22,730 nucleotides of DNA from an uncultured Nitrososphaerota archaeon (lineage in GTDB: Archaea; Korarchaeota; Korarchaeia; Korarchaeales; Korarchaeaceae): assembly GCA_964618805.1 (NCBI GenBank), contig CAZUBM010000006.1:1-22730 (forward strand), written 5' to 3'. Shown one piece after another: positions 353 through 22,730 of this stretch. The notes below the pieces were generated by a model. That model worked only from the letters and a program-made list of their open reading frames with translations. It ran no database searches and was not told the DNA's origin. The translations under genes and the position numbers were made by a program. Position 1 is the first letter of the stretch. Each line of letters starts with the position of its first letter.

Positions 353-390
353 GGTAACTTGCAGCCGAAGATCTCGAAGTCCCCAATCAG

Positions 391-5042: not shown

Positions 5043-5339
5043 TTGCCTATGAAGTACTTGGTGGTCTACGACATAACCAATGACAGGCTTAGGGCGAGGG
5101 TAGCGGAGAAGCTGAAGGACTATGGGCTAAGGAGGATCCAGTACAGCGCTTTCTTGGGGGAGCTTATCCCAAGGAGGCTGAGGTCTTTAGTGCAGGATCT
5201 GAGGAAGATACTTGGCCCGAGACCTGAGGAGAGGGAGAGGAAGGTAATACACGTTTTCCCAGTTCCTTCCTCGCTGAGAGGCATAATAGTGATAGGAGAT
5301 GAGTGGAAGGAGGAGGAGGGAAGGGTCGAGGTTTTTTAG
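5043..5339 (+). CDS. cas2: CRISPR-associated endonuclease Cas2 (ATG at 5049 likely)
   Basis: YLVVYDITNDRLR..V...LKDYGLRRIQYSAF.G; 98 aa, after cas1. Confidence 0.97.
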   Translation: MPMKYLVVYDITNDRLRARVAEKLKDYGLRRIQYSAFLGELIPRRLRSLVQDLRKILGPRPEERERKVIHVFPVPSSLRGIIVIGDEWKEEEGRVEVF

Positions 5340-5975: not shown

Positions 5976-6671
5976 TCACTCATCAAATAGGCCAAGCCTG
6001 CTGGCAACCTCTTCCTTTGAGATCAGCCACTTTAACTCTTTGCTTTCCTCGTACACGTAGATCAGGAGGACTGGATACTCCTGAGCGAGCTCGTAGTAAG
6101 CTATTGTGGCTGGCTTCGTAGCAGAGGTGCAATCTAAGATTACAGCGTGCTCTTGAAGCAAGGTCTCCAGATATGGCCTTACCTTCTCCTTCACAGCGTC
6201 CACATCTATTATCTCTTTGTCCTCAACCAATATCCAAGCAAAAGGAAGTTTCATCCCTGCTCCCCCTGGCCAGCTCTCCATTGCCCTCCTTGAGGTGCAG
6301 ATGTAGCAAATCTTAGGGCTTATCCCCTTTTTAGAGAGGAGCTTAATGGCTACATTAGGCTCAGCCTCTTGAGACTCTTCCTTCTTTATGCCCAAAAGAC
6401 CTATGTAGGCGAACTGGGCAGATCCTCCACAGAGGTAGCTCATGATGCCCTTGTAGGAGAGCTCATAAGCTCCTTTGATCACCCTTCTTAGAAGGCCACT
6501 TGATATCAGCCTGTCAAGGTGATGAACCAAAACGGAGCCATCTAATCCTGTTAGATCCCTTATCTCGGAGAAGCTGGCAACTCCTCCCTTCTTTGCAATT
6601 GCCTTGAATACATCCTTGGTCTTAGCTGGCTTTAGGTAATACCTCCACTTCATCCAATCATGTTGTAGCAT
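5976..6671 (-). CDS. Putative transcriptional regulator: N-terminal winged HTH plus C-terminal CARF-like domain
   Basis: SFSEIRDLTGLDGSVLVHHLDRLISSGLL is an ArsR-like wHTH. AYIGLLG ... ILDCTSATKPATIA ... LIYV resembles the CARF Rossmann pattern (D.TGG.K). Confidence 0.7.
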   Translation of the reverse strand: MLQHDWMKWRYYLKPAKTKDVFKAIAKKGGVASFSEIRDLTGLDGSVLVHHLDRLISSGLLRRVIKGAYELSYKGIMSYLCGGSAQFAYIGLLGIKKEESQEAEPNVAIKLLSKKGISPKICYICTSRRAMESWPGGAGMKLPFAWILVEDKEIIDVDAVKEKVRPYLETLLQEHAVILDCTSATKPATIAYYELAQEYPVLLIYVYEESKELKWLISKEEVASRLGLFDE

Positions 6672-6758
6672 TGTTCTATAATATTAGAGTGCAGCTTTAT
6701 TAATCTTAAAATTATATCGTAAGTCATTTTACAATAAGCCAATTCCCAGTGATGGAGA
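6672..6758. promoter_or_regulatory. Divergent promoter region between the regulator and the cmr operon
   Basis: 87-nt AT-rich gap with TATA-like TTTATTAA and an imperfect palindrome TCTA-TAATAT-TAGA (6675-6688). Confidence 0.5.
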
Positions 6759-7529
6759 TTGAAAACCTCTGTTATAGCCCCTCTTGGCTTGAGTCCCCCT
6801 GTGGTAACTGAATTTATCCAATATCTTGATCTAGCTGAATCATCTCTTCCAGATTACCTGTTCTTGATGACTACAAATGACAAAGAGGTAATGGAGGGAG
6901 CTGAGCTCATTAAGACCGCCATGTCCCTTAAGTATAGAAAGTGCAGGGTTAACACGATCAGCTTGCCATTTCCCGACCTAGATAGACAGGAAAGGGTATG
7001 GGAGTTTACAAGGCTAGCTGGAAAGCTCCTGGTGGATCAGAGATTAAAATACAATGTGAGAAGGGTTCACGTTCTTATCTCTGGTGGAAGGAAGATAATG
7101 GGGATCCAGCTAGCCATGCTATGCCAGATATTCCCAACTAGCGGAGTTTACCACGTTGTAGCTAGAGATGTGAGGGTAGCTAGCGAAAGGCTCGAAGCGA
7201 TAAGGGGGTTGATATCGGAGCTGGCCAAGGACTCTGACAAGGAGGACTTCTACAGGGAACACTCTGAGGAGTTTGATCCTGTGATGTGGCCCCCTATGTC
7301 TGAGTACTCAGTGGTGAAGCTACCCATCCTCCCTTATCCGCAGGAGGTGCTTGAGAGATTGGTAAGGGTTCTTTCCTCCCCTAGAACTAGAAGAAAGGAG
7401 GCCGCGGTTCCTGAGGAGCTCTTGGTGATGTTGTGGGAGGGGGGACTACTTCAGGTGGTCGAGGGATGGATCATACCGACCGAGATAGGAAGGGAGCTTG
7501 GTGAGGCATTGGGGAGCGTGTTAGGATGA
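6759..7529 (+). CDS. csx14: CARF protein, Csx14/Cas_NE0113-like (possible ring nuclease) with C-terminal wHTH-like tail
   Basis: IAPLGLSPPVVTE, HVLISGGRKIM, VYHV, LPILP; first gene of the cmr operon, overlaps the cas10 start (ATGA). Confidence 0.75.
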   Translation: MKTSVIAPLGLSPPVVTEFIQYLDLAESSLPDYLFLMTTNDKEVMEGAELIKTAMSLKYRKCRVNTISLPFPDLDRQERVWEFTRLAGKLLVDQRLKYNVRRVHVLISGGRKIMGIQLAMLCQIFPTSGVYHVVARDVRVASERLEAIRGLISELAKDSDKEDFYREHSEEFDPVMWPPMSEYSVVKLPILPYPQEVLERLVRVLSSPRTRRKEAAVPEELLVMLWEGGLLQVVEGWIIPTEIGRELGEALGSVLG

Positions 7530-10500
7530 GTGAAAGGGTGAAAGAACTAGGCACGAAAGAGTGGCTACTCAAATTAGCTGCTTTACTCCACGACCCTCCT
7601 GATAAAGTTGCTCTTACTCCAGGCCACGGGAAACGCGCTGCTGGTTATTTACCCAACTACTTTGCAGAATGGGCGAAGGAGAGAGGAGTAGATATAAAGG
7701 AACTTATACGCAAGCATCATGCTGATGAGCATGAGGTTCCTGAGGAAGTTAGAAGCCAGCTTAAAAGGCTTAAGCTAGCAGATTGGTTTTCGAGCGCCAG
7801 CGAACGCATAGCCTTAGATCTCGCCTCTGAAGTACTAGGTTTAAGCAGGATGGATGTAGGTTATATAGAGCTTGTGCACCCTTTCTCTGGCCTTAAATCA
7901 TGTCTGGGTAAGCTTAATGCTGAGGAGTTAAGGAAGCAGCTAAGGACTGGTAAACTGCCATTAGTGAGCAATGTACTTGATGTGCTCAGGCAGACGACTT
8001 GTAGGCCTTGGCAGGGTATTCTGAGGGGATTGGGGGATTCCGGAGCCAAGTTGTTATATCTGCTCTTCTGGAGACTGCTTGAATCGAAGTGGCGAGAGCT
8101 AGTGAAGGGCCGTACTGATCCCCGCGCTGCTTCCCTTCCTGCGGATAGCCGTGTCCCGACGCACTCAATCTGGGATCATGTTGAGGCAACTAGCGCCCTT
8201 ATACCCTGCATTGAAGCTAAGGGTTCTGAACTGGTTCTTAGGGCCTCCCTTCTCTCCATGGACCTAGGCGGGGTCCAGCTTTTTATATCGGCTGCTAGAA
8301 AAACTAGTGATCTCTGGGCTGGGAGCTGGATCTCCTCAGTTCTCTCCTGGTCAGCCATCAAGGAGGGTCTGTCAATACTTGGTCCAGATGCAGTCATTTA
8401 TCCGTATATTAAGGGGTTCCCCTTTGTCGACCTCTGGATAGCTAGTGAGCTCGCCCAATTGTTAATGGATAGAAGGATCCTCTCAGAGAGGGATGCCGAG
8501 GAGTTCAGCAGGAAGCTTATAGAGGAGCTTTGGAAGCTTGATTGGGGATCCATAGAACGGGGGAAGCGCTTGCTTTATCTTCCACTAGTTCCAAATAGTG
8601 CTCTTATATTAGCTCCAAATCATTTATGCAAGACCCTTGAGAAATGCATGAGAGAGGGCTTAGAGAACTGCTGGAAGCAGATATGTGAAAGTGCTCGGGA
8701 ACGCATTCGTAATCTCTTGATTGAGAGGATTCCAAAGAGCAGTATAGAAGAGGGATGGGAGGAGAGGTGGAGTAGGCAGGTCGAGAGACCGCCTCTATGG
8801 CCTATGAGAATAGTATATACTCCATTTCCGGAGAAAGGAGAGGATGTAGAAGAGTTCTTAACTGAGAACTGCAGAGATCTACCTAAAGAGCTTGTTAATC
8901 CGCTCCTTAGGCTGGTTAAGAGGCTTAGGAAGGTAAAGCCAACCATAGTCTATGGTGCGGTTTACGCGCTTAATTCGGTGAAGCTCTCTGCTTACATTCC
9001 ATCATTTAATATCAGCGTTGAGCCATCACCTCGCGAGGAAGGCGGGGAAATAACTGAGAGATGCTCCCTGTGCGGCATAAGGAACCCCCTCTTCCTCAAA
9101 AAGGAGGTTTGGAGGGCCCTTAAGGATGCGAGGCCCGGGTTAATAGAGTGGGATGAGAGGCTCGATTCAGGCGAGTACCTTTGCGCTCCCTGCCTAATAA
9201 AGCGACTCCTTGGATCGGATAGTGTGTTCTTCAAAGAGATCATCAGGGCTGTTATTGGCCTTCCTGAGGGGCTTTCCGAGGGATTAGCCGAAGAGAGACT
9301 TGAAGTCCGCTTCCCATCAACTTCAGATTTTGCTACAGCTACCTTTAAGGCATCCCTATGTGAAGCTATTTTCTGGGCCATAGAAAGGAGAGAGGAAGAG
9401 GGAGCGCTTAGAAAGCTCTTAAATGAAGCTAAGAGGCTAAATGAGGAACTCTCAAGGTTAAGGCAGAGGATTGGCATAACATCCTCCCGTCAGCCTCCCG
9501 CTATTGAGGCTCGACTATCTTGGCTACGCCAAATTAGGGCCAAGATAGAAGGCTCTACTGATATTCAGGGCAAAGCTTCCGAGATCTCTGAGGGTCTTAT
9601 GAGCATTGAAGAATTGCTCAGAATACCAGGCGAATTCCTAATGGAAGAGACATGGCTCCGATTAAGAGAACGCTTCGAAGGGATACATGATAAGCTGGAA
9701 GAGGCGCATAAGAAGCTAAGAGAATTTCTAAAATACGCTGAAAGTTTAATTGAAGAGTGGTTCAGCGCTTTAGAGGAGGATGGAGAGCTTCCTCTTTACA
9801 TAGGGGAGTGCGTAAATGATCTTAATGAAGTCCCCGGCCCCCTTATGCCTTACGCATGGCGGAAGAATCCAGGGAGCTTCTTCGCCCTTCTGAAGAGCGA
9901 TGGGGATGATATGGGACGCTGGATCTCAGGCGAGTTCTTACCAAGCTATTTTGATTCGCTGCACCCACAGATCAGGGAGCAGATTCGGAGCAAAGGGGAA
10001 GCCAAGGGTCTACTGCAAGATAGGCGAGCTATGAGTCCCGCATCTCACATGGCATTTAGCAGGGCACTTATGAGCTTTGCGGCACGGATAGTCCCTCGAG
10101 TAGTTGAAGAGATTGGCTTCGGATCCGTGGTATACTCAGGTGGAGATGACTTAATAGCGCTGCTTGCGCCTGAGCTAGCCCTTGAAGTAGCTCAGCGTCT
10201 AGCTGAGGAGTTTTCCCGTGAGTTCTATGCTGTACCTGGGTTGATTATACAAGGGCTCGGATACAGGGTCTCATGTTCAACAGGTCTAATCATCACTCAC
10301 TACATGTATCACCTAGGTAGGGCGGTGGAGATTGCTGTTGAGGCCATGGAGAAGGCGAAGGATGTTAAGGGCAAAGGAGCTATCTACGCTGAGCTCCTAG
10401 GCAGGGCTGGGCCCATAGTTAAGCTAGAGTGCGGTGTTCACTGGACGTATCCATGGGATAAGAAGAAGCTTGCCGAGCAGGTTAAGCTACATCAATACGG

Positions 10501-10984
10501 TATGGCCCGGTGGTGGAAGGGGCTTAGCCTCTCCCGGAATCCAAGTGATCCACTTACCACAATATTAGTGGGTGCTGGAGAGCTTCGATCTCAATCTTCC
10601 TTAAGGAGCCCGATCATTGAGGCTCAGGCCATTGCTTCAATCGTGAATGGACTCGCCCAGCTTGAGAAAAAGAACATCAGGGTGGCTAGGCGCCTTATCC
10701 ACATATTAAACGCACCTGAGCTACGGAGCGCACTAGCGGCAGGGGGACCCATAATTCCAGCTCTAATCAGGAGGGAGGTAGATAGGCATGTGGAAGGACC
10801 GCCTCAATCTTCTGCCTTTGAGCAGGTAGTGAAGAGCGTGTTACACCGCTCCTTCACTAGTTGGTATCAGACTCTAGGGCTTGGAGAAGTAATCAACGAT
10901 TTCATGGGACTGGTTCATATAGCGAATCGATGCCTATCTGAGTCGCTCCTAAGAGCTAAGCCAAGAGGGGATGAGATTGGATAA
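7526..10984 (+). CDS. cas10: Cas10/Cmr2, type III-B large subunit with HD nuclease and intact cyclase palm
   Basis: LLHDPPDK and ADWFSSASER (HD domain); PADSRVPTHSIWDH; VQLFISAARKTSDLWAGS; CSLC...CAPC Zn site; KSDGDDMG; YSGGDD. Confidence 0.97.
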   Translation: MSERVKELGTKEWLLKLAALLHDPPDKVALTPGHGKRAAGYLPNYFAEWAKERGVDIKELIRKHHADEHEVPEEVRSQLKRLKLADWFSSASERIALDLASEVLGLSRMDVGYIELVHPFSGLKSCLGKLNAEELRKQLRTGKLPLVSNVLDVLRQTTCRPWQGILRGLGDSGAKLLYLLFWRLLESKWRELVKGRTDPRAASLPADSRVPTHSIWDHVEATSALIPCIEAKGSELVLRASLLSMDLGGVQLFISAARKTSDLWAGSWISSVLSWSAIKEGLSILGPDAVIYPYIKGFPFVDLWIASELAQLLMDRRILSERDAEEFSRKLIEELWKLDWGSIERGKRLLYLPLVPNSALILAPNHLCKTLEKCMREGLENCWKQICESARERIRNLLIERIPKSSIEEGWEERWSRQVERPPLWPMRIVYTPFPEKGEDVEEFLTENCRDLPKELVNPLLRLVKRLRKVKPTIVYGAVYALNSVKLSAYIPSFNISVEPSPREEGGEITERCSLCGIRNPLFLKKEVWRALKDARPGLIEWDERLDSGEYLCAPCLIKRLLGSDSVFFKEIIRAVIGLPEGLSEGLAEERLEVRFPSTSDFATATFKASLCEAIFWAIERREEEGALRKLLNEAKRLNEELSRLRQRIGITSSRQPPAIEARLSWLRQIRAKIEGSTDIQGKASEISEGLMSIEELLRIPGEFLMEETWLRLRERFEGIHDKLEEAHKKLREFLKYAESLIEEWFSALEEDGELPLYIGECVNDLNEVPGPLMPYAWRKNPGSFFALLKSDGDDMGRWISGEFLPSYFDSLHPQIREQIRSKGEAKGLLQDRRAMSPASHMAFSRALMSFAARIVPRVVEEIGFGSVVYSGGDDLIALLAPELALEVAQRLAEEFSREFYAVPGLIIQGLGYRVSCSTGLIITHYMYHLGRAVEIAVEAMEKAKDVKGKGAIYAELLGRAGPIVKLECGVHWTYPWDKKKLAEQVKLHQYGMARWWKGLSLSRNPSDPLTTILVGAGELRSQSSLRSPIIEAQAIASIVNGLAQLEKKNIRVARRLIHILNAPELRSALAAGGPIIPALIRREVDRHVEGPPQSSAFEQVVKSVLHRSFTSWYQTLGLGEVINDFMGLVHIANRCLSESLLRAKPRGDEIG

Positions 10985-12164
10985 TGCTGGTTATCGTTTT
11001 ATGAGGTTTAGGCTCTCACCTATGGATGTACTCAGGTTTAGGAAGCCCAAACCTTTCCGCGTAGGCGGTTATGCCCAGACTGAGCTCATGCCGCCTCCAA
11101 GCACCATAGCTGGTGCCTTTCTAACTGAGCTCTATTACCATGGCCTCATCCCTGATACTGATAGCTTCGAGGAGTTTGTTAAAAGGTTGGAGGATGAAAA
11201 GGCGTTCTTCCACGGCCCATTCTATAGCTGGAAGGGAGACCTCTTAGTTCCTCTACCGTACGATATTCGCAGGTGTAAGTATTGCAAGAAGCTCTTCCTA
11301 GTCCCTTGGAGGGGAGACCAATACGTTGAAGGGGTTAGCTATCCATTATCTACCCCCTGGCCTCCCTGTCCAAGCTGCGGCAGGGCCTCAAAGCCAGCGA
11401 TGAATGGCTTAATTTCATCCTCCGTATTGAAGCTGAGGGCTCAGCAAGTAACTGAGCTTAGGGGTGTAGATGTAGCCAAAATCAAGGAGGATGCTGAGGG
11501 CATAGTCAGAATCCAGCTGAGGCCTGGGATAGCGCTGAAGGATGAAGCTAAGGTAGTTAGGCCAGGCTATTTTTACATGACTGAATGGCTCGAGCTTATC
11601 GATGTTGATATCGTGGAATATGCGAGCCTCCCTGAGCATTACCTCAATATCTTAAAGAATCTCTCCCTGCTAAGTGTTGGAGGCGATAGGAGGCCTGTAG
11701 TCGTTAACTCTGAAGAGCTTAGGCTTGATGAGATTTGTAAGGAGCTTACTGGCTATTCTATTGAAGAACTATCTAAAGAAATTGTTAGGAGTAAGTGTTT
11801 CGATCTCCTTATACTGACTCCAGCTATATTTGCTAGACAGGGGAAAATCCCCTACAGAGAAAGGACGAGCTGGCTTCCAGACTGGCTTGTTAACGGGAGG
11901 GGAGAGCTGAAGGGCCTTAAGATGAGGTTAATTGGCGTGGGGCTGCACAAGCCCCTCCCAGTCAGCGGCTGGGATTTAAGGTTGAATGCCCCTAAGAATA
12001 TGTATGCTGCTGTCTCCCCGGGATCCGTATTCCGTCTTGAAATCTTGGGGGATGTAAACCTCCAAGATGTAATGCGGTTCTTGGGGGAGGTTCTTGTTAA
12101 AGGTGTGGGGAGGTGGAGGGCTGTTGGATATGGAACAGCAGTCGTGCTCCCAGTCAGTCAGTAA
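10971..12164 (+). CDS. cmr3: Cmr3 (Cas5 group)
   Basis: PMDVLRFR..KPF, PPPSTIAGA, GGDRR, LTPAIF, SGWD....PK..YAAV.PGSVF, GYG C-terminus. Confidence 0.93.
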   Translation: MRLDNAGYRFMRFRLSPMDVLRFRKPKPFRVGGYAQTELMPPPSTIAGAFLTELYYHGLIPDTDSFEEFVKRLEDEKAFFHGPFYSWKGDLLVPLPYDIRRCKYCKKLFLVPWRGDQYVEGVSYPLSTPWPPCPSCGRASKPAMNGLISSSVLKLRAQQVTELRGVDVAKIKEDAEGIVRIQLRPGIALKDEAKVVRPGYFYMTEWLELIDVDIVEYASLPEHYLNILKNLSLLSVGGDRRPVVVNSEELRLDEICKELTGYSIEELSKEIVRSKCFDLLILTPAIFARQGKIPYRERTSWLPDWLVNGRGELKGLKMRLIGVGLHKPLPVSGWDLRLNAPKNMYAAVSPGSVFRLEILGDVNLQDVMRFLGEVLVKGVGRWRAVGYGTAVVLPVSQ

Positions 12165-13137
12165 TACCCATTTATTGATACTATTCTGCGAGACCCCTAC
12201 GCATTTCGGAGCTGGCAGGGGGGTGGCACCAGCTGATCTCATAATTCAAAGGAGCAGGAGGACAGGCCTCCCGATAGGACAGGCCCCGAGTATACGTGGT
12301 ATGTTTAGATCAGCGCTTAAGCTAGCAGGAGAGAAACAGTTAGCTAGCAAGCTCTTCGGGGCTGAGCCAGAGGAGGTCGGAGGCAGGAGCGGCATTCTGA
12401 CCTTTCTAGACGCTAAACTCCTATTATTCCCAGTAAACTCAATTAGGGGCATGTGGTGCTGGGCTACATCGCCCTCAACCCTTAAAGAATTTGATCACAC
12501 ATTAGCGGCCCTAGGGCTTAGCGGATGTGATCAATTTAAGGAACTTCACGGATTGCTTACTAGACTTCCCGAGGTAGAGAATGCAAAGGCATTCGTCCCT
12601 GTTGAGAATGAGGTCGTGGTAGATGATAAGGTCATCTTATTAGCTGGCGAGGTTGAGCTAGAGGCCTTAGAGTTTAAAGAGCAAGGGAAATGCTCTGAGG
12701 AGCCAACTAGGGATCTTATTGGAGAGCTCGCGTCTAAACTCGGAGAGTTGCTCCCCGACGGGCCCCCGTACGATTATATAAGGAGGAAGCTCGCTAAGAG
12801 ATTTGTCTTAATTGGGGACAACACTTTTGAATTCCTCACGAGGAGGGGAGCGGAGCTACGCACTAGGGTTAGCTTAGACTATGAAAAAAAGATCGTGAAG
12901 GAGGGAGGGCTTTGGACTGAGGAGTATCTACCGGAGATGAGTGTAATGTACTCAGGAGTTATCTTGAGAAGCCGTAAGGCTGAACCCCAGGTAGAACTAG
13001 GCTATCTAAAGAGATTCCTTGAGTTCATCATAGATAAAAAGAGATTCTTTGCAGCGGGCAAGGAGAGCGTGGGCGGGGGCCTTGTCTATGTTAAACCATT
13101 ACCAGGTGTCTCAAATGAGCGTGAAGGTAAAGGATAG
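12094..13137 (+). CDS. cmr4: Cmr4 (Cas7 group backbone RNase), copy A; ATG at 12130 likely
   Basis: ETPTHFGAG....DLIIQR..TGLP, DAKLLLFPV.S, GGLWTEEYLP, GKESVGGG; catalytic-position His and Asp present. Confidence 0.93.
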   Translation: MLKVWGGGGLLDMEQQSCSQSVSNTHLLILFCETPTHFGAGRGVAPADLIIQRSRRTGLPIGQAPSIRGMFRSALKLAGEKQLASKLFGAEPEEVGGRSGILTFLDAKLLLFPVNSIRGMWCWATSPSTLKEFDHTLAALGLSGCDQFKELHGLLTRLPEVENAKAFVPVENEVVVDDKVILLAGEVELEALEFKEQGKCSEEPTRDLIGELASKLGELLPDGPPYDYIRRKLAKRFVLIGDNTFEFLTRRGAELRTRVSLDYEKKIVKEGGLWTEEYLPEMSVMYSGVILRSRKAEPQVELGYLKRFLEFIIDKKRFFAAGKESVGGGLVYVKPLPGVSNEREGKG

Positions 13138-13588
13138 GATAGCTCAGATGTATGAGCACGCATCGCACTACGTAAGAATTGCTAGTAGGTTAGGCCCTGA
13201 GGGACAAAAGAAGCTGAAGTCTTATGCCGCTAGCTGCTCCACTTCCATAGTAGCCGAAGGCTTGCTTGCAACGCTTTCCTTTGAGGCGTCAAAAGCGAAG
13301 GAGAAAGCCATCAGAGAAGTCATAAAAGCTCGCAATAGCGAGGCTATAAGTACGCTTGAAGAAATCAAGGAAGAAGAACTAGCTCATGCTCTAGTTTATG
13401 ATTGTGTTGCCAGCTGGATCCTGCCTTTAGTAGGGGTGAAGGAGGAGCTTTACCAAGAAAAACCATTAGAGATTTTGCTTCGCCTAGCTGAAAGATATAA
13501 TGACTTAGCTTTGAAGTCTCGTACGCTTCATGAAGCTTGTCTACTCCTCGAGGCCTTAAAGAGGCTAGCGGAGGGTGAGTTTGGCTGA
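13049..13588 (+). CDS. cmr5: Cmr5 (Cas11 small subunit), copy A; ATG at 13115 likely
   Basis: KSYA....SI..EGLLATLSF..SK and C-terminal EA..LLEALKRLAEG are typical of Cmr5; follows cmr4. Confidence 0.85.
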   Translation: MQRARRAWAGALSMLNHYQVSQMSVKVKDRIAQMYEHASHYVRIASRLGPEGQKKLKSYAASCSTSIVAEGLLATLSFEASKAKEKAIREVIKARNSEAISTLEEIKEEELAHALVYDCVASWILPLVGVKEELYQEKPLEILLRLAERYNDLALKSRTLHEACLLLEALKRLAEGEFG

Positions 13589-14622
13589 TGAACTGGTCTT
13601 CCATCGAGAAGAGGCTCTTATTCCTGATGCTAGTTACAGACTTGCACTCGGGGATGGGTAAGGCTGTCTCAGGGGCTGTAGATAACCCGATTCAGAGAGG
13701 AAGCCCTGCTTACATCCCGCTAATTCGAGGTAGTTCTATTAAGGGCGCCCTAAGCAATCGCTACTTTAAGCGGGTGGGTAAGAGAAGCAGAGATGAGAAG
13801 GAGATATGGGCCCCTATTTTTGGGGATGTAGATGAGTCAGCTGCTTCATTTACTGTGTTAGACGCCCATCCTCTCCTAATCCCTGTGCCCTCCCTCAAAG
13901 GAGGCTATGCTTACGTGACCTCACCAGCCCTTCTTAATCGCTTTGCCCTAATTGCCGATATGACGGGGAAAGATATGTTAGTTAATGAAGCCCTTGAAGC
14001 TTTGGCACCAGGTGGACGAGAGCCGTGTGGAAGGGAATGCTACGTTGAGGAGGAAAGTAAAGTGCTCTTGAGTGTTGAAGCCCTTCAGAATGAAGAATGT
14101 GTGGTTATAGAGCCTCTTCTCGTTCTTAAGCCCGCTAGGAGGGCTTATGAGATATCTAAGCTCACTAGGACACTTATCAGGAATAGTCAAGCGTTAAATA
14201 TAGCTCTCGAAGTGGAAGGGCACGTAGTGCTCATTAGTGATGATATGTTAAGCCTTGTGTTGGAACATGTCATCACCGCGACTCCGCGCATACGCTTAAA
14301 GTATAAGGAGAAAGTAGTGGAGACTGGGCCCTGGTGGGAGGAGACATTACCTAAGGGCACATTACTATACACAGCCTTTATTGCAAGGAACTCCAGAATC
14401 CCCCTCAAGCGAGAGGTACTTAAAGGACTGAAGAAGTTTATCTCCTTTAGAGAGCTTGGCTTAGAGATAGATGGGGACAAGGCTGAGATTCAACTTAAAC
14501 CGTCTCACATCTTTCAGATAGCGTTAGGACAAAAGTCCCCCCTTTACCTCTTCTTGGGGGCTGACAAGAGCTCAGGTAAGGGCTTGATTAAGGTGATCTG
14601 GTATGGGAGAGGGATCAGTTAG
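13588..14622 (+). CDS. cmr4: Cmr4 paralog, copy B
   Basis: TDLHSGMG.....VDNPIQR, GSSIKGAL, DAHPLLIPVPSLKG.YAYVTSP..L.RF, RIRL....K.V..GPWWEETLP.GT, LGADKSSGKG. Confidence 0.88.
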   Translation: MNWSSIEKRLLFLMLVTDLHSGMGKAVSGAVDNPIQRGSPAYIPLIRGSSIKGALSNRYFKRVGKRSRDEKEIWAPIFGDVDESAASFTVLDAHPLLIPVPSLKGGYAYVTSPALLNRFALIADMTGKDMLVNEALEALAPGGREPCGRECYVEEESKVLLSVEALQNEECVVIEPLLVLKPARRAYEISKLTRTLIRNSQALNIALEVEGHVVLISDDMLSLVLEHVITATPRIRLKYKEKVVETGPWWEETLPKGTLLYTAFIARNSRIPLKREVLKGLKKFISFRELGLEIDGDKAEIQLKPSHIFQIALGQKSPLYLFLGADKSSGKGLIKVIWYGRGIS

Positions 14623-14938
14623 TGAGGCGTTAAGCAGAACTGCCCTGTTTCTCAAAGCGATGGGTTTGAGAGGGGAGGAGATTCCTGATAAAGCGCGTAA
14701 GCTCCTTATCTGGATGAGAGTAGGGGCTCCTTATCTCATAATGTGGCTCCTTATCATGGAAGAGGAGGTAAAGGAGTTGCTTCAACTGCTTAAGCTAGAG
14801 CTTACATGGGAAAACCTAATTTGCTTTGCGGAGAGGGAGGATCCTTCCCAAATTCGTTTATCCGAATTATGCTGGAGCAGACAGTTAGATTTTTTGCGTA
14901 AGCTCTCAGAGACAATTGGAGAAGGGGGGATAAAATGA
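14603..14938 (+). CDS. Small helical protein, probable divergent second Cmr5-like subunit
   Basis: 111 aa, RBS-like AGGTGA before the ATG, overlaps both neighbours, occupies the cmr5 position after the second cmr4. The C-terminal LDFLRKLSE resembles the Cmr5 ending (LEALKRLAE in copy A). Confidence 0.55.
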   Translation: MGEGSVSEALSRTALFLKAMGLRGEEIPDKARKLLIWMRVGAPYLIMWLLIMEEEVKELLQLLKLELTWENLICFAEREDPSQIRLSELCWSRQLDFLRKLSETIGEGGIK

Positions 14939-16179
14939 GCAATTCTGTCCTTAACAAGCCAGAGAGGCTCTTTGAAGTGGATTTTGAGGTTTTTATGCCA
15001 ATTGCTACAAGTGGATATGATACTAACACACGGCATACCGTAGACAAACTTACGTGGTATGAGTCAATTAGAGCTCCAAGTATCCGAGGAGTATGGAGGT
15101 GGTGGCTTAGAACGCTATTTGCAGGAGTTGCATGGGATAGAGGAAAGAACGAAGTGGAATCAGCTCTTAAAGCAACTGAAGTGCTAGGCTACGTTGGCAA
15201 GAAGAAATCATCACGATCCTACCTTATGATGATCCTAACTAGGCCAAGTTCCCCGCCAGAACACGCTAGCCGAATTAAAATAGGAAAAGTTCCTAGGGTC
15301 AGTCTTCTCCGGAGAGATGTTCATTTTCATCCACAAGACGCCTCCTGTAAACTGAAGGTATACTCGTTGGTTCCTGTCAAGCCTAAAGGCCTTAGAGACG
15401 TAGCGCTAGCTTCTCTTGTCTTGAGCGCATCGTTGGGAGGCTTTGGAAAGATTGCTAGACGGGGGTTTGGGAAGCTTAAACCTCTTAAAATAGAGAAATC
15501 CCCTGAGACTCTACGTAGGATTATGAATCTTTGGCAAGAGTTATTTAATGAGGATGAAGAGAGAGTTAAAGAGGCGTTAAAAGAGCTCTGCGAATCTATC
15601 TATGAGTTGGCAGATAAAACTTTTAATGAGTTTGAGGCAGCTTTATCATCCCAGGGAAATCTTAGCCAGCTTCCTCGTATACCTGCGTTCTCTAAGAGAA
15701 AAATAAAAATTGAAGAAATTGAAATTCCTTACTGTCAGGTTCTATTGACCAGTACTCGTTCTCTCTCTAAAAGACTAGAGAGCGTTATAGAGAAGGATAG
15801 CTCCCTTAAGATAGATCGAGGGATTAACTACTATAGAATGGGAGGTTTTCTAGATCGTAACAAGCCCCTTCATCTCATTGGTATGTTATGCCGCATATTA
15901 GCCATTAAATTAGGTCCAGATCGATGGATTTTAGGAGGACCGCGGAAATGGAGAGATCAAAACGATAGAACAAAACAAAGAGAGATAAAACGAAGGGCTA
16001 GCCCAGTCTGGTTTACTATTCTAGGTGAGCATGGGAGTTATCATGTTGTTGCCACAGTATTCCTGAGCAAGGATTGGCCTCATGGATACCAAGTCTCTAG
16101 AGAAACTTTATCTCCTTTCGGAAACCTCTTAGATCTGCTTTTTGAATATAACTTTCGTGTGGTGTGGCCTAATGGATGA
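14935..16179 (+). CDS. cmr1: Cmr1 (Cas7 group RAMP)
   Basis: IRAPSIRGVWRWWLR, LGGFGKIARRGFG, LGGPR, RRASPV. Confidence 0.92.
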   Translation: MSNSVLNKPERLFEVDFEVFMPIATSGYDTNTRHTVDKLTWYESIRAPSIRGVWRWWLRTLFAGVAWDRGKNEVESALKATEVLGYVGKKKSSRSYLMMILTRPSSPPEHASRIKIGKVPRVSLLRRDVHFHPQDASCKLKVYSLVPVKPKGLRDVALASLVLSASLGGFGKIARRGFGKLKPLKIEKSPETLRRIMNLWQELFNEDEERVKEALKELCESIYELADKTFNEFEAALSSQGNLSQLPRIPAFSKRKIKIEEIEIPYCQVLLTSTRSLSKRLESVIEKDSSLKIDRGINYYRMGGFLDRNKPLHLIGMLCRILAIKLGPDRWILGGPRKWRDQNDRTKQREIKRRASPVWFTILGEHGSYHVVATVFLSKDWPHGYQVSRETLSPFGNLLDLLFEYNFRVVWPNG

Positions 16180-17410
16180 GGACTCACTTCATATGAATAT
16201 TCTGCTACTTCTGGGGTTGTCAAAACATAGAAGAATTGAGAGGATTAATGAGACGATTAATACTCTTTTAAAGAACGTGAAAGACGCGTTAAGGCAAAGA
16301 AGGGTTCAGAGAGAAATAATTGTAAAAATTATAGATAAATTAAATAGAGTATTACATGAATTAGAAGAATTAGAAAGAAGTGGAACGCTTGTTTCCCTTG
16401 CTATTAAAGTTCTTAAGCAAGAGCTTAAGTTAATAGGGTGTATAAAACAAGCTAAAGATAAGCTCTCTCAGCCTTACATAGGTAGAGATATACTTAAAGA
16501 TGTAAGGAATTTAGTTGAGAAGCTAGACTTAGGTATAGAATCACTTCGTCGCTTGCTACTTGAGAAGCTATCTCGAGAGACGAATATAACGACTAGCAAT
16601 AAATATGTGCAGCACCTTAAGGAGGCCTTAAAAAGTACTAAAGGGGATCAGAGCTTACAGCTAAGAAGTATTAAGGCGCGCTTAATTACCCCAGGAGTTC
16701 TTGGTACTCGCACATTCCCTTGGGCTATAGGATTCCATATCGGTCTCCATTGGGACCCTCTTATTCAGTCTCCATACTATCCCGCTACCGCTATAAGGGG
16801 AGCCATTCACTCCCTCCTCTTTTATCCTGATCTCATAAAGAAAGTAGTTGAAGACGCTCTTGAAACCGAAGTTAGCCATCTTGAAGCTTTATGCTATACT
16901 TATGAAGTGCTTGGTGTTGCAGAGTGGGATAAGGATCTGCCTAATGAGGTAATAGATAGATGGAAAGGATGCATTAGGGCTGAAGCAGCCGATCTCCTTA
17001 AACTATTAAAGAAGAAACTTGGAGAGAAATTCATAGGAAAAGTAATGTTCTTTGATGCATATCCGGTAGAAGTTAGTGAAGAGGGCCTCCTCATAATACC
17101 AGAAGTTATAAGCCCCCATTATCGTGAAACAGAAGTAAGACGCCTTCTTGAGACTGATCAAAAGGTAATAATGAAAGAGCTCCATAAGAAGCTCCCTGAG
17201 ATACAAGAGATAACTGAACCTAGAGCGTTGCTCTTTCCTGCCATAGCACCTGGCGTAACATTCACTTTTTACATAGCTTCAGAAAATGAGAAGCTACTCA
17301 GGGTCGCTACAGCTCTCCTCAAATGTGCCCTTACAACCGTCGGTATTGGGGCGAAGACCACATCAGGCTACAATCTCTTTGAAATAACTGAGGATGAGGC
17401 AAATACCTAA
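16142..17410 (+). CDS. cmr6: Cmr6 (Cas7 group RAMP) with long helical N-terminus; ATG at 16172 likely
   Basis: WDP....PYYPATAIRG, GKVMFFDAYP, EVISPHY, P....FPAI..G..F.F, GIGAKTTSGY. Confidence 0.92.
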   Translation: MNITFVWCGLMDEDSLHMNILLLLGLSKHRRIERINETINTLLKNVKDALRQRRVQREIIVKIIDKLNRVLHELEELERSGTLVSLAIKVLKQELKLIGCIKQAKDKLSQPYIGRDILKDVRNLVEKLDLGIESLRRLLLEKLSRETNITTSNKYVQHLKEALKSTKGDQSLQLRSIKARLITPGVLGTRTFPWAIGFHIGLHWDPLIQSPYYPATAIRGAIHSLLFYPDLIKKVVEDALETEVSHLEALCYTYEVLGVAEWDKDLPNEVIDRWKGCIRAEAADLLKLLKKKLGEKFIGKVMFFDAYPVEVSEEGLLIIPEVISPHYRETEVRRLLETDQKVIMKELHKKLPEIQEITEPRALLFPAIAPGVTFTFYIASENEKLLRVATALLKCALTTVGIGAKTTSGYNLFEITEDEANT

Positions 17411-17920: not shown

Positions 17921-18601
17921 CTAGCGCCTAGCAGCCCTTTCAGCTTCTACCAGGATGGATTTAAGGAGCTTGCGTGTTCTGTCCGACATCCCTCTGACTA
18001 TCTTATCGAGGTGCGGGTCCTCAGAGCTTCCCCTATCGAGCGCTAAAATCACCTGATCTATCTTCCAAGGAATGGCGAACACTGGAAACTCTATCAAACG
18101 GCGAGATTCAGCGGGAGGATGAAGCACTAATCTCTTCTCCTCCTCAGGAAGCTCGGCTAATCTCTTAATCATTCCCTTGGATTCTAGCTCAGGATCTACA
18201 AGGAGATGAAGAACCGATTTTACGCCGTAGAGCTGACCAAGCAATACCATGGCTGCTGACATGGTCTTCCTACCTCCTGCAAGGCTCAAATATACCTCGT
18301 TTCCGCTAGCTATGATCTCCTTATGCATAATGGCAGCTACTTTCCTCATGAACTCTGCATTATCCTCCTCATCGTATATGTCGTCGCTCTTGATGCAGGC
18401 TTCCTCGGTTCTTAGCTCGACGTTAGGATAATGTTTGTGGAATTCCTCCCTGATTAAAGGAATGCATCCGTCCCATATCAGTTGGTCGCTAGTTGTTGCC
18501 AAGTAAACTCGTCCGGGCTTCTTTCCTTGCTCTATTAGGGCATCCATTGTCCCGGTTATTACGCCTGGAGCACGGCCTAATGAGGCTATGAGAACTAACA
18601 T
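17921..18601 (-). CDS. CARF protein, Cas_NE0113/Csx14-like (possible ring nuclease)
   Basis: From ATG 18601: MLVLIASLGRAPGVIT, LATTSD, DDI, LSLAGGRKTMSA, HLLV, LIEFP. The ORF track extends it to 18646. Confidence 0.78.
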   Translation of the reverse strand: MLVLIASLGRAPGVITGTMDALIEQGKKPGRVYLATTSDQLIWDGCIPLIREEFHKHYPNVELRTEEACIKSDDIYDEEDNAEFMRKVAAIMHKEIIASGNEVYLSLAGGRKTMSAAMVLLGQLYGVKSVLHLLVDPELESKGMIKRLAELPEEEKRLVLHPPAESRRLIEFPVFAIPWKIDQVILALDRGSSEDPHLDKIVRGMSDRTRKLLKSILVEAERAARR

Positions 18602-18865
18602 CCTGATCGAACTGGTAAAATGAATTGAAAAAATAAAAGACTTCATTTGATATCACGTTCCATCTGTTTGATTAATTATCAGGCAGGAGACTCTAGATCT
18701 AGCTGATTAAGGGATTAACGTGCTGCAGGTGTACAAAACGCAGGAGCTAGCTCATGAAGCAACTCTGAAGCCTGAAGAAGGAGACTGAGGGTCTGAAACC
18801 CAATTTTGGGACGCTTCATGTCTCCCTTAAGGTTCTTTTTTAGCTTCAGATAGTCAATACATTAG

Positions 18866-19351
18866 ATGCCCATAGCTTACCTGGCTACGGTAGGCTCCAG
18901 CGAAAAGCCTGCTTTCAATTCGATAAAGGCTGTTCTACAGAAGTATAAACCAGAGGTTCGTAGAATACTTCTTCTATGCTCCCAGCGCGACAAGAGGAGG
19001 GGGATACCTGGAACAGAAGAGGTAGGAGAACGCATTAAGGCTAAGATCTCTGGACTGCCCTGCACATCTGGAGTTGAGGTTAAGATCCTGAGAGTAAGCC
19101 AAGAATCGATAGAAGAGGTGTACAATAAGGTTAAGATGGCGGCTGAGGAAGCAAAGAGGGACGGGTTGGAGCTTTGGGTTGATATAACTGGTGGCAGGAA
19201 GACCATGTCCAGCGGTGCACTTCTAGCTGCTACAGAGCTCGGTCTCAAGTGCTTCTACTTCTGGCTTTATGATCCAGCAAGAAACAGGGATAAGGAACTG
19301 GAGGAGATGCAGGAATTCATAGATTATGAAGTTGTTAGGGTGAGGGCTTAA
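18866..19351 (+). CDS. Stand-alone CARF domain protein (161 aa)
   Basis: YLATVGSSEKP, ILLLCS, WVDITGGRKTMSSG, C-terminal strand CFYF; no room for a fused effector. Confidence 0.82.
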   Translation: MPIAYLATVGSSEKPAFNSIKAVLQKYKPEVRRILLLCSQRDKRRGIPGTEEVGERIKAKISGLPCTSGVEVKILRVSQESIEEVYNKVKMAAEEAKRDGLELWVDITGGRKTMSSGALLAATELGLKCFYFWLYDPARNRDKELEEMQEFIDYEVVRVRA

Positions 19352-19352
19352 G

Positions 19353-20453
19353 GTGCGGCATTGGAAGTTCCTTAAAATTAGGGAAGAAAAGCTGGCAGGA
19401 ATAATAGGCCGCTTAGGCGGTAAAATTGAGCTTCATTGCCTTCTAGCAAAGGGTAATAGGCTTGTGGGCTATCTCATACTCGACAAGCAAGAGGCGACGA
19501 TAATTCCGAAGATTAAGGAGAGGGGAATCATAGCCTCTCTCATAAAGGACGAGCAAGTTAAAGAAGCTCATCTAATTCAAGCCATTGAAAGGGCTTGCAT
19601 AGAGCACGTAAATCCTCTTGACAAACTAATTGAGCTTGCTGAGTCTTTATCCGAGTTTAACGCTAAAATATGCCTGGCTGTGGATACTAGCTTCCTTATG
19701 AGGGGCCTTCTTGAGTATCTAAAAGAGAAGTTAGAGGAAAAGTTAAAGGAAAAGAAGTTAGAGGAAAAGGGCTTTAGCTTGAGTTTATTCATCCCTTCTA
19801 TGGTTCTTCAGGAGCTCTTCACGGACTTCGATGACTTGATAAGGAGCGAGGAGCTGAGCGCGATAAGCGGCTTCCCAAAGTTTAGATCGAGATTGGCCAG
19901 AAGGGTACTCTCCTACATGATGGGGACCAGAGGATCAAGAGCTCTTAAAATTCAGTTTGGATCTGGGCATATTCTCCTCCCAACTGGGGCGAAGGGGATG
20001 AAGTACCTGCCAGATCTTGAGATCCTAAGGCAGATTAGGGAGTTCTCTAAAGAAAGCAGCGACTTGGTGATAACGGCAACCTGCGACCTTGGAATGGCAA
20101 TGATTGCTGAGGGGCCTTGTTGCTACATAAAGCCTGAGAAAGTTTCCGCATCCTTCAAAAAGGAAGGACAAGAGATAGTGCTGCCAAGAAAGAGGATCCA
20201 GCAAACCTTAGCGGAGCTTATAGTTGCGTTCGGACTCCTGCTCCTTAAGCCTGAGCAGGGTGAACCTATGCTGCTCTCTTACAGCTGGAAGGGAATAGGA
20301 AGATCTGATTATGCCAGGAAGTTAATATGCCTTGGAGTAAGAGAGGTAAATGAGCTGATTAACTGGATCTCGCTTGATAAGGAGAGAGGCGAGGGATTTC
20401 TTCCATCGGAGAAGGTTCCATGGAGAAATTTGGTTGAGAATAGGGGTCTATAA
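19353..20453 (+). CDS. PIN-domain ribonuclease-like protein with N- and C-terminal extensions
   Basis: PIN acidic tetrad: LAVDTSFL, IPSMVLQEL, PDLEIL, TATCDLGM; starts 1 nt after the CARF stop. Confidence 0.75.
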   Translation: MRHWKFLKIREEKLAGIIGRLGGKIELHCLLAKGNRLVGYLILDKQEATIIPKIKERGIIASLIKDEQVKEAHLIQAIERACIEHVNPLDKLIELAESLSEFNAKICLAVDTSFLMRGLLEYLKEKLEEKLKEKKLEEKGFSLSLFIPSMVLQELFTDFDDLIRSEELSAISGFPKFRSRLARRVLSYMMGTRGSRALKIQFGSGHILLPTGAKGMKYLPDLEILRQIREFSKESSDLVITATCDLGMAMIAEGPCCYIKPEKVSASFKKEGQEIVLPRKRIQQTLAELIVAFGLLLLKPEQGEPMLLSYSWKGIGRSDYARKLICLGVREVNELINWISLDKERGEGFLPSEKVPWRNLVENRGL

Positions 20454-20537
20454 GGGATCAAACTTTGTAATGCTGTTAATTCCGGTGCTTAGCTGAGCAA
20501 TGTATATAAGGCGCTTTTGGGATCATGAAGTGAATTA

Positions 20538-20675
20538 ATGTCTGAGGGAAGTAGCTTGAAGGGAAGGACCCGGAGGATAGGGAAGATCAGGTTCTTGAGG
20601 ACCATCGAAGTTAGGATTGATCCTCACAAGCTTAGGCGCGCTGGTAAGATAGGGAAGATCAGGCTCGTGAGGTAG
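20538..20675 (+). CDS. Small basic 45-aa protein with an internal repeat (not in ORF track)
   Basis: MSEGSSLKGRTRRIGKIRFLRTIEVRIDPHKLRRAGKIGKIRLVR*; TATA-like TATATAA about 30 nt upstream; stop lies 5 nt before the next gene. Confidence 0.5.
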   Translation: MSEGSSLKGRTRRIGKIRFLRTIEVRIDPHKLRRAGKIGKIRLVR

Positions 20676-20680
20676 TTTAA

Positions 20681-21109
20681 GTGGTTGTGAGGGTTAAGAT
20701 CAGGTTGAAGGGTCCCGCAGGCCAGATAGAGACTACAGCACTGGTTAACAGCGGTTTTGAAACCAAAGAGCCTGAGATAATCTTGCCTTCCGAGGTATCG
20801 GAGCTTTTGGGCATCGAGGATTTTGAAGGGGCTGAATACGAGGTTGCTGGAGGAGCAGAAGTAATAGCTGCCAAGGCTAAGGGCACGATAAAAGTTGAGC
20901 TTCTCTCAAACAACGAGCTTCTCGTTAGCTTTGATGGAGCTAGGCCCGTGGTCCTTGCAGGAGAAGAAGAGGTTATAATAAGCGGCTATCTTGCCTCTGA
21001 GTTGAGGATATCTCTAATCGACATAAAGGAGGGGCTCTGGTGCTTAAGAGAAGAGGTTGGAAAGGTGGTTAGGAGAAGCGAGGAGAAGCAGGTCTGGAAG
21101 AAGGACTGA
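20681..21109 (+). CDS. Retropepsin-like (clan AA aspartic protease fold) protein with NSG in place of D[ST]G
   Basis: VRVKIRL....ETTALVNSGFE...IILP, flap-like YEVAGG, EEEVIISG..L..L; 142 aa single lobe. Confidence 0.7.
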   Translation: MVVRVKIRLKGPAGQIETTALVNSGFETKEPEIILPSEVSELLGIEDFEGAEYEVAGGAEVIAAKAKGTIKVELLSNNELLVSFDGARPVVLAGEEEVIISGYLASELRISLIDIKEGLWCLREEVGKVVRRSEEKQVWKKD

Positions 21110-21155: not shown

Positions 21156-21974
21156 TTGCCTTGCAGGATCTCCGTCTCGCTTGAGCCATCCTCTGAGCTC
21201 GTTTACGAGCTTCCAACAAGCGGTAGAATAGTTCAACACCTCTTCTTCTCCGCAATAAAGGCTTACGATAAGGATCTAGCTTCGGAAATTCACTCAATGA
21301 GGATAAAGCCTTACTCGGTAACAAGGCTCACCACGGCCAGGGAGAACGTTAAGGGGAAGCTGGCTAGAGTTGGACTCGGAAGCTACGTAAGGGCTACCTT
21401 CAAGCTTTTGAGGGATGAACTCAGGGAGCCTCTAATCGAGGGGCTCCAGAAAGCTGAGCTTAAGGTCGCTGGGGTCGAGCTAAAGGTGCTCGACGTAAAG
21501 GCAACTAGGCCTGAGGGATACGAGGAGATGCTCTTCAGGGGAGAGCCCTACAGGGAGTTCACGGTTGAGATATTAACCCCTGCTGTCTTCGATGAGGAGT
21601 CTCCCTTTCCAGAGGACAGCAGACCGATGTTCAGAAGGCCTCTCCTCTGTTGGAACACGTTTTGCCCCGAGGAGCTTAGACTTCCAGAGAGCGCAGTTCA
21701 GAGGGCATCAAAGCTCAAACTCCTCAAGTGCCAGCTTGTGAGGAGGGTCGTGCCCGTACCAATCAAGAGGTTAAGGGTCCCTATAATCTGCTTTTCAGGC
21801 ACCCTCGCCTACAGGATGGGAGGGCTTGACTTCATGTCAGGCCTAATGCTGACCGCCCTTCTGAAGCTTGCCAACTACAGCGGAATAGGATCAAGGACGA
21901 CCATGGGATTTGGAAGCGTTTTCATCAAACCTTACGTTAGCTGCAAAGAAAAGGGCAGAAGTCGCTTAAAATGA
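21156..21974 (+). CDS. cas6: CRISPR RNA-processing endoribonuclease Cas6
   Basis: LA..IH....KPYSVT, LTPAVF, F.G...Y and C-terminal G-loop ANYSGIGSRTTMGFG. Confidence 0.93.
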   Translation: MPCRISVSLEPSSELVYELPTSGRIVQHLFFSAIKAYDKDLASEIHSMRIKPYSVTRLTTARENVKGKLARVGLGSYVRATFKLLRDELREPLIEGLQKAELKVAGVELKVLDVKATRPEGYEEMLFRGEPYREFTVEILTPAVFDEESPFPEDSRPMFRRPLLCWNTFCPEELRLPESAVQRASKLKLLKCQLVRRVVPVPIKRLRVPIICFSGTLAYRMGGLDFMSGLMLTALLKLANYSGIGSRTTMGFGSVFIKPYVSCKEKGRSRLK

Positions 21975-22617: not shown

Positions 22618-22730
22618 GAAGCAATCCTGAACTCCTGAAGAAGGAGATTGAGAGTACTTGTTCTCCATCGCCATAGACAATTACTGGTAATGAAGCAATC
22701 CTGAACTCCTGAAGAAGGAGATTGAGAGAC
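22618..22730 (+). CRISPR. CRISPR array 2 (start only: two repeats, one full spacer)
   Basis: GAAGCAATCCTGAACTCCTGAAGAAGGAGATTGAGAG at 22618-22654 and 22692-22728; 37-nt spacer at 22655-22691. Confidence 0.95.

Follow-up and report, generated by a model that had tools for sequence, protein, structure and literature searches.

A split CARF and PIN gene pair as a candidate cyclic oligoadenylate-dependent effector of an archaeal type III-B CRISPR-Cas locus

Background

Does a pair of abutting genes, one for a stand-alone CARF domain and the other for a protein with a PIN nuclease domain, form the signal-dependent effector of the CRISPR-Cas locus in which it lies? The question is raised by a stretch of 22,730 nucleotides (nt) from an uncultured Nitrososphaerota archaeon (contig CAZUBM010000006.1, hereafter the window), which carries a complete archaeal type III-B (Cmr) CRISPR-Cas locus according to Pfam and NCBIfam scans of its open reading frames (ORFs). 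PIN domains act as toxin RNases (PMC4012209), PIN RNases are listed among the effectors activated by cyclic oligoadenylate (cOA) (PMC12669027; PMC4012209), and single-chain fusions of a CARF and a PIN domain have long been known (PMC4012209; PMC6546367), including a CARF+PIN cluster (Msed_1167) listed by Shah et al. (PMC6546367). An earlier prediction made from the window sequence (the original prediction) had taken the two genes for one cOA-activated module with a toxin-antitoxin (TA)-like release of the PIN RNase. Having compared the two genes, their relatives and the surrounding locus, we read the pair as a gene-fission form of the CARF-PIN, cOA-dependent type III ancillary effector, the two proteins working as a non-covalent complex, and we give this reading a probability of roughly 0.6. 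What is new here is a split, strongly diverged and unannotated form of a known kind of effector.

Results

The gene for the CARF protein, 161 amino acids (aa) long, is followed after a gap of 1 nt by the gene for a 366-aa protein, and the coordinates and lengths originally given for both proved exact (Table 1). The 161-aa protein has five matches in Pfam, all below the gathering cut-offs (best Cas_APE2256, E 3.7e-4, 20.8 bits vs 24.8), and three in NCBIfam, all below the curated scores (Crn1 4.7e-5 and Csa3 4.2e-5 among them); the CARF profiles of PADLOC, which have no curated cut-off, match it with E-values down to 3e-14. Its AlphaFold2 (AF2) model, computed from a 9-sequence alignment, has a predicted local distance difference test score (pLDDT) of 86.6 and a predicted template modelling score (pTM) of 0.85. 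When this model was compared with the PDB by Foldseek, 118 matches were obtained at E<=1e-3, and nearly all of the matches listed are CARF proteins, headed by the CARF domain of Cam1 (4e-9) and Sso2081 (2.9e-8) and including the ring nuclease Sis0455. Judged from the model, the protein is clearly a CARF domain with a Rossmann-like fold, and a stand-alone one, as had been predicted. Two pocket motifs can be recognized, a Ser/Thr-rich T8-V9-G10-S11-S12 loop behind strand 1 and a Gly-rich loop with a conserved basic residue behind strand 4, D106-I-T-G-G-R111-K112-T-M-S, the latter invariant in all nine sequences of the family alignment (161-219 aa, one fragment and the window protein included); they align with G9-T10-S11 and R105-K106 of Sso2081, respectively. 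The C-terminal 28 residues are conserved, yet modelled with low confidence (pLDDT 48-67).

The 366-aa protein of the window matches nothing in Pfam (even at E<=10), NCBIfam or PADLOC, and tblastn against plasmids and phages gave no match. A HMMER search over 1.84 billion representative proteins retrieved only seven at E<=1e-3; six of them are full-length relatives (335-376 aa), and the seventh is a fragment of 63 aa. In the family alignment of the window protein and the six full-length relatives (n = 7), the acidic tetrad D111, E154, D221 and D245 is invariant, as are T112, Q153, L155, F156, F174, P175, R180, L222, Q227, T243 and Y258. The AF2 model is of moderate confidence (pLDDT 67.4, pTM 0.49) and falls into three parts, a nuclease core flanked by extensions of about 100 aa (residues 1-103 and 261-366), in agreement with the lengths anticipated for them; within the N-terminal part, residues 53-82 have a pLDDT below 50. 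In the core, where parallel strands alternate with helices, D111 follows strand 1, E154 lies in the helix after strand 2, D221 starts the helix after strand 3 and D245 follows strand 4, which are the canonical positions of a PIN domain. Foldseek likewise matched the model to PIN domains (3i8o, 2.2e-5; SMG6/EST1A/Nmd4, 4-5e-4; AF0591; PAE2754) and to an archaeal PIN-ATPase Holliday-junction helicase (5f4h, 1.5e-4), and Pfam PIN profiles do match other members of the family, namely PIN_12 in four of the seven proteins (best 2.4e-8), PIN_4 in two and PIN in one. Look-alikes in the ESM Atlas, which serve as a lead only, belong to large archaeal clusters of PIN_4-bearing proteins of ~343-357 aa (score 0.95). 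The model and the intact tetrad, which the original prediction had pointed out, identify the protein as a predicted PIN-fold nuclease with a complete set of acidic residues. As a separate observation, a short tandem repeat in the DNA at 19723-19769, with units of 12-15 nt, encodes a Lys/Glu-rich insertion in a helix of the PIN core (about residues 124-139), nine residues of which are missing in P0002, a PIN relative 66% identical to the window protein.

The PIN frame is offset by +1 from that of the CARF gene, and a Shine-Dalgarno-like GGTGA stands before its start, within the end of the CARF gene (Table 1). This candidate ribosome-binding site suggests translational coupling of the two genes. 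When species-representative genomes were scanned with the PIN alignment, 47 stretches were matched and two loci confirmed, which together with the window gives three loci with gene context: the window, a contig of a Thermoproteota metagenome-assembled genome (MAG) (L001) and an uncultured Thermoproteales MAG (L002). In all three, the CARF gene comes immediately before the PIN gene and abuts or overlaps it, and in L001 and L002, too, the PIN start is preceded by a similar stretch containing GGTG. L001 begins inside the CARF gene, and its first 123 nt encode the last 40 CARF residues (80% identical to the window); the CARF stop codon TAG (121-123) is directly followed, in frame, by the TTG start (124) of a PIN gene whose product is 67% identical to that of the window, and then by a decayed relative of the window's 142-aa ORF and cas6 (73%). 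In L002 the CARF protein has 175 aa (44% identity, E 3e-41) and its gene overlaps by 25 nt the gene of a 376-aa PIN homologue (28% identity), and the neighbours are cas2-like, cas4-like and winged helix-turn-helix (wHTH) genes and three further CARF-type genes. The relative frames of the two genes differ in all three loci, which speaks against a sequencing frameshift and likewise against a conserved recoding signal. Consistently, CARF-only and PIN-only proteins occur as separate predictions, nine (the window's own included) and seven respectively. L001 also encodes, at 6368-6781 on the minus strand, a small VapC-type PIN protein of 137 aa (Pfam PIN, 8.8e-7), which is unrelated to the 366-aa family.

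Directly upstream of its target-type pair, L002 carries a second, paralogous split CARF/PIN pair, the ORFs of which overlap by 4 nt. The first gene (2465-2920) encodes a 151-aa CARF_m1 protein that matches PDLC01972 (6.1e-16) and the 'CARF_m1--CARF_PIN' profile PDLC01973 (1.9e-15, profile positions 8-146 of 465) of PADLOC, and the second (2917-3963) a 348-aa protein that matches the PIN end of PDLC01973 (1.4e-12, positions 327-456). The CARF protein of the window also matches PDLC01973 (2.1e-8); PADLOC gave no match for any of the six members of the window's PIN family that were scanned. When longer relatives of the CARF family (385-2000 aa) were sought, three distant proteins were obtained, among them P0021, a metagenomic protein of 544 aa which is a single-chain CARF_m1--CARF_PIN (PDLC01971, 2e-42; PDLC01973, 1.1e-32 over residues 20-518); a close relative joining CARF and PIN in a single chain was found neither among proteins of 201-641 aa nor among those of 385-2000 aa. 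By hhalign, the CARF family profile aligns with residues 1-150 of P0021 (97.4%, E 1.2e-11) and the PIN family profile with residues 297-494 (72%, E 3.3e-5), and the latter comparison improved to 95.6% (E 1.1e-8) when a two-sequence profile of P0021 and the 348-aa protein of L002 was used, the aligned stretch (PIN profile positions 109-335 with 298-529) spanning the PIN core and the C-terminal SW-x-G motif. In the joint alignment with these two proteins, D111, E154, R180, D245 and G314 are invariant in nine of nine sequences, and D221 is matched in eight by MAFFT and in the ninth by hhalign. PDB sequence searches with the window PIN protein, the PIN profile, P0021 and the 348-aa protein yielded nothing meaningful. 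From the hhalign homology of both halves it follows that the window pair tiles a fused architecture already known, the chain being interrupted just behind the CARF domain. On this sequence comparison, the extensions of the PIN protein appear as parts of the fused architecture and as no novelty, the N-terminal one by MAFFT placement alone against the linker region of P0021, a region outside the hhalign coverage.

The surroundings of the pair are summarized in Table 1. In Cas10 the HD motif (residue 22) and the GGDD motif (residue 872) are both retained, and cOA synthesis is therefore plausible. The 19 ORFs scanned in the window with Pfam and NCBIfam (ten of the proteins also against PADLOC) yielded no known effector, be it HEPN, Can/Card, NucC, Lon or another kind, and the claim that the PIN protein is the only recognizable accessory nuclease holds for this set. 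The second Csx14-type gene is divergent from the CARF-PIN pair.

Table 1. Coordinates of the features of the CRISPR-Cas locus in the 22,730-nt window
Feature	Position	Strand	Basis or remark
CRISPR array 1, 30-31 repeats	379-2617		
csa1, cas1, cas2, cas4 (adaptation genes)	3021-5910		
231-aa wHTH + CARF protein	5976-6671	-	N-terminal winged helix; C-terminal CARF, PADLOC CARF_m5 1.4e-14
Csx14/CARF5 protein, candidate ring nuclease (signal off-switch)	6759-7529	+	TIGR03642 1.1e-25, at cut-off; PADLOC CARF5 6.3e-73
cas10/cmr2, 1152 aa, presumed signal generator	7526-10984	+	TIGR02577 2.1e-66
cmr3, cmr4, cmr5, second cmr4-like gene, 111-aa ORF, cmr1, cmr6 (III-B effector complex)	10971-17410	+	Pfam, NCBIfam
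Second Csx14/NE0113-type CARF protein, candidate ring nuclease	17921-18646	-	Cas_NE0113 (Pfam) 6.4e-27; PADLOC CARF5 2.2e-35
Stand-alone CARF protein, 161 aa	18866-19351	+	ATG start, stop TAA 19349-19351; ORF, PADLOC, AF2, Foldseek
Shine-Dalgarno-like GGTGA	19339-19343	+	Inside CARF gene end, 9 nt before PIN GTG
PIN protein, 366 aa	19353-20453	+	GTG start
PIN protein, N-terminal domain (residues 1-103)	19353-19661	+	Beta-alpha-beta-beta-beta unit, then helices; AF2, pLDDT 29-84 per 10-residue block
PIN protein, nuclease core (residues ~104-260)	19662-20132	+	Tetrad, AF2 topology, Foldseek
PIN protein, acidic tetrad codons D111; E154; D221; D245	19683-19685; 19812-19814; 20013-20015; 20085-20087	+	
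PIN protein, C-terminal domain (residues 261-366)	20133-20453	+	Invariant S311-W312-x-G314...D319 motif (7/7)
142-aa ORF between PIN gene and cas6	20681-21109	+	TIGR03698 clan AA aspartic protease 5.9e-5, below cut-off
cas6	21156-21974		
CRISPR array 2, start	22618		

Several further observations concern the rest of the locus. The 231-aa wHTH-CARF protein has its domains in the reverse order of Csa3, and a homologue of it is encoded in L002 (27% identity, E 8e-19). The cmr operon contains two Cmr4-type genes (12094-13137 and 13588-14622), and the 111-aa ORF between the second of these and cmr1 (14603-14938) has no Pfam, NCBIfam or PADLOC match. The counterpart of the 142-aa ORF in L001 (1397-1753) occupies the same place and is 35% identical, decayed, and without a listed ORF of at least 80 aa. 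Between the PIN stop codon and the 142-aa ORF of the window there is a 25-nt direct repeat (20576-20600 and 20648-20672; 92% identical, spacing 72 nt). Within array 1, a 114-nt repeat-spacer stretch is present in two exact copies (690-803 and 842-955), and the region 171-355 contains degenerate repeats that deviate somewhat in sequence; when both arrays are read in the direction of array 2, array 1 repeats terminate in ATTGAAAG and array 2 repeats (22618-22728) in ATTGAGAG. An orphan degenerate CRISPR repeat is located at 18756-18791 on the plus strand, 75 nt upstream of the CARF start and inside the 219-nt divergent intergenic region that follows the Csx14-like gene; it aligns with the array repeat over 37 columns with five mismatches and a 1-nt deletion, and could be either an array relic or a CRISPR RNA-like (CreTA-like) regulatory element of the pair. 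Rfam returned no family in the window, and a scan of 18600-20750 for sigma-70 promoters and intrinsic terminators, the coverage of which does not extend to archaeal promoters, found no site.

Discussion

The CARF-PIN pair is supported as the best candidate for the cOA-dependent effector of the Cmr locus, since the linkage of the two genes is conserved, fused homologues exist, the Cas10 motifs are intact and no other effector nuclease was found. That the two genes are one functional module, as originally proposed, is borne out by their coupling in three of three loci and by the fact that each half is homologous to one end of the single-chain CARF-PIN proteins; of the expected co-occurrence with cas10, the pairing itself holds in the three loci and cas10 is seen in the window only. 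The homology to fused proteins speaks for a stable complex acting in the manner of a single-chain effector. In such a scheme, the binding of target RNA by the Cmr complex would lead Cas10, with its GGDD motif, to make cOA, probably cyclic tetraadenylate (cA4), and a CARF homodimer would bind this signal in a pocket lined by S11/S12, R111 and K112. Non-covalent contacts would keep the CARF dimer on the PIN subunits, the probable contact region being the N-terminal ~100 residues of the PIN protein, which would replace the linker of the fused proteins, and ligand binding would allosterically turn on a metal-dependent RNA cleavage at D111/E154/D221/D245, which may result in growth arrest or abortive infection. 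Switch-off would fall to the two Csx14/Crn1-family proteins encoded in the locus, which would clear the signal, possibly together with the CARF subunit; Csx14 has been assigned to the Crn1 ring-nuclease family in a survey of ring nucleases (PMC12409355).

A number of findings weigh against this reading. ST0035, described as 'a CARF-PIN toxin', showed only weak binding of cA4 and no induction of its RNase activity (PMC6546367). The solved sequences closest to the CARF family profile are the ring nucleases Sso2081 (5.5e-8) and Sis0455 (2.3e-6), and the family-wide R111-K112 aligns with their catalytic dyad R105-K106. On the PIN side, the model is only moderate and the window protein matches no PIN profile; furthermore, HMMER with the PIN profile detects neither P0021 nor the 348-aa protein of L002, which makes the homology to the fusions a remote one, supported by hhalign together with the aligned catalytic and C-terminal motifs. 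Finally, only three loci have context and cas10 is visible in one of them: the L001 contig is cut inside the CARF gene and places the pair near cas6, and the 15.6 kb of L002 contain neither cas10 nor an array.

The single-chain CARF-PIN proteins (PDLC01973, PDLC01068, P0021, Msed_1167 and ST0035) share with the window pair a DxTGGRK-type CARF motif, the same acidic residues of the PIN domain, a C-terminal domain with an (S/E)(W/Y)(K/R)G motif, and probably also the association with type III CRISPR in Thermoproteota, a type III locus being seen around the split pair in the window. The pair differs from them in being encoded by two genes, split right after the CARF domain, and in a PIN half too diverged for PADLOC, Pfam, NCBIfam and HMMER; in addition, unlike in the CARF_m1 fusions, the CARF half scores higher against CARF1/Csx1 profiles than against CARF_m1. 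The idea that this architecture lacks precedent is weakened by the long-known fusions and by the stand-alone 'CARF_m1--CARF' profiles of PADLOC. Our literature search found no described split CARF + PIN pair; nevertheless, in view of these profiles, split CARF_m1/PIN forms may already be catalogued. A possible further fusion is SiRe_0806, of which a complex with cA4 has been deposited (9jxw/9jxx, 'PIN domain-containing protein'); the PIN model shows a weak structural similarity to 9jxx (E 2.5e-4, TM-score 0.30). The title of the entry and its molecule name, together with a weak match (E 0.069), make a CARF-PIN fusion probable, and no relevant paper on SiRe_0806 was found in the literature search. 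The top structural match of the CARF protein, the CARF domain of Cam1 (8t64-8t66; E 4e-9, TM-score ~0.6, 24% identity, crystallized as residues 42-206), is a sensor of cA4 and cyclic hexaadenylate by the titles of its PDB entries. In Cam1 this domain is fused to another part of the protein, a membrane segment, whereas the effector here is a separate PIN protein. The sensor and the final output also reside on separate polypeptides in CalpL-CalpT-CalpS, where a SAVED-Lon protease cleaves an anti-sigma factor (bioRxiv 10.1101/2024.05.08.593097); the present pair combines a CARF protein with a nuclease and has no protease step.

The best placed of the alternatives, and still an unlikely one, is the TA-like switch of the original prediction, in which the free CARF protein would sequester and inhibit the PIN RNase, cOA would release the active toxin, and ring-nuclease activity of the CARF protein would reset the system. 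The gene order, a small gene upstream and a PIN gene downstream in abutting or overlapping frames, recalls type II TA operons such as VapBC; R111-K112 would provide a built-in timer; and the conserved C-terminal 28 residues of the CARF protein, with their low model confidence, look like a segment that folds on a partner. However, fused homologues such as P0021 and PDLC01973 cannot act by dissociation and do not fit the logic of a labile antitoxin, and their existence makes allosteric control within a complex more economical than release. The upstream protein, moreover, has a CARF fold, no DNA-binding antitoxin domain (Pfam, NCBIfam, AF2) and no other hallmark of a VapB-type antitoxin, and the PIN protein, at 366 aa with two domains besides the nuclease core, contrasts with a typical VapC toxin of ~130-150 aa. 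Given the fusions, we regard TA-like release as a less likely sub-variant of the CARF-PIN complex. A related and equally doubtful idea is that the pair forms a self-timing cOA switch, in which the CARF protein would be sensor, inhibitor and ring nuclease at once, cA4 would relieve its hold on the PIN RNase, and slow cleavage by the Arg-Lys dyad would re-impose the inhibition.

Next in rank, and likewise improbable, comes the possibility that the 161-aa protein is a third stand-alone ring nuclease of the short Crn1 type, and that the PIN protein is a separate accessory RNase merely co-transcribed with it. Besides having Sso2081 and Sis0455 as its best solved relatives, the protein resembles these enzymes in being a small CARF-only protein (161 aa, near their chain lengths of 178-207 aa), in its DITGGRK sequence with invariant Arg-Lys at the positions of R105-K106, and in the hydroxyl residue at the S11 position, where S12 of the window protein is aligned and S or T is found in eight of the nine family members; R105 and K106 are essential for cA4 cleavage, and R105 is described as exclusive to the Sso2081/Sis0455-type group (PMC9638899). 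On the other side, its score against the Crn1 profile (NF040581) is 23.2 bits vs a cut-off of 125, and PADLOC ranks Csx1/Csm6-type (3e-14) and CARF1 sensor (4.7e-12) profiles far above CARF_m13 (2.1e-6). D75, the residue that positions R105, corresponds to E84 of the window protein, in a variable column (E, D, T, S, S, T, S and E in the eight rows read). No counterpart of the helical C-terminal lid insertion by which Sis0455 closes its pocket can be recognized, the profile alignment stopping at position 139, before any lid. Two Csx14-type candidates are already present in the locus, and more than one ring nuclease was found in just 10 of 242 ring-nuclease-positive loci (PMC12409355). A third ring nuclease would leave unexplained both the pairing with a PIN gene in all three loci and the existence of fused effectors whose sensor end is homologous to this protein. 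On its sequence features we read the CARF protein primarily as a sensor subunit. With the Arg-Lys dyad of the Crn1-type ring nucleases retained, it may also cleave cA4 in a self-limiting manner and so remove the signal as well as, or instead of, sensing it, a possibility left aside in the original prediction.

Less probable still is that the PIN-like protein is not a cOA-controlled RNase, and would instead be a DNA- or structure-specific nuclease or a non-catalytic scaffold, brought into CRISPR loci for a different task, e.g. RNA processing. The structural neighbourhood of the Holliday-junction helicase 5f4h, the large archaeal clusters of similarly sized PIN proteins in the ESM Atlas and the failure of cA4 to activate ST0035 would fit such a role, but the complete and invariant tetrad argues for catalysis, and the homology to the PIN half of CARF fusions as well as the constant pairing with a CARF gene speak against it. 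A single CARF-PIN gene broken up by a frameshift error of assembly or sequencing is scarcely credible in spite of the 1-nt distance and the fused relatives, as the split recurs in three diverged loci with three different junctions (a 1-nt gap with +1 offset, an in-frame TAG and a 25-nt overlap), every PIN gene begins at a start codon of its own behind a GGTG-type motif, and both CARF-only and PIN-only proteins are predicted separately.

Conclusions

The CRISPR accessory profile libraries miss this PIN family entirely, and loci such as the present one would be taken to have ring nucleases and no effector. CARF-PIN proteins are listed as type III effectors, and in the literature examined there is no demonstrated activation, the one test found (ST0035) being negative. 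Should the pair be a self-timing switch, it would be a TA-like module whose 'antitoxin' answers to a second messenger, and the free sensor subunit could be shared or exchanged among paralogous PIN effectors, as is hinted by the tandem split pairs of L002. The natural split of the CARF-PIN effector into two genes separates the sensor from the nuclease, and would ease the study of how ligand binding is transmitted from a CARF domain to a PIN active site, whether the sensor destroys the signal too, and whether sensors and nucleases are interchangeable.

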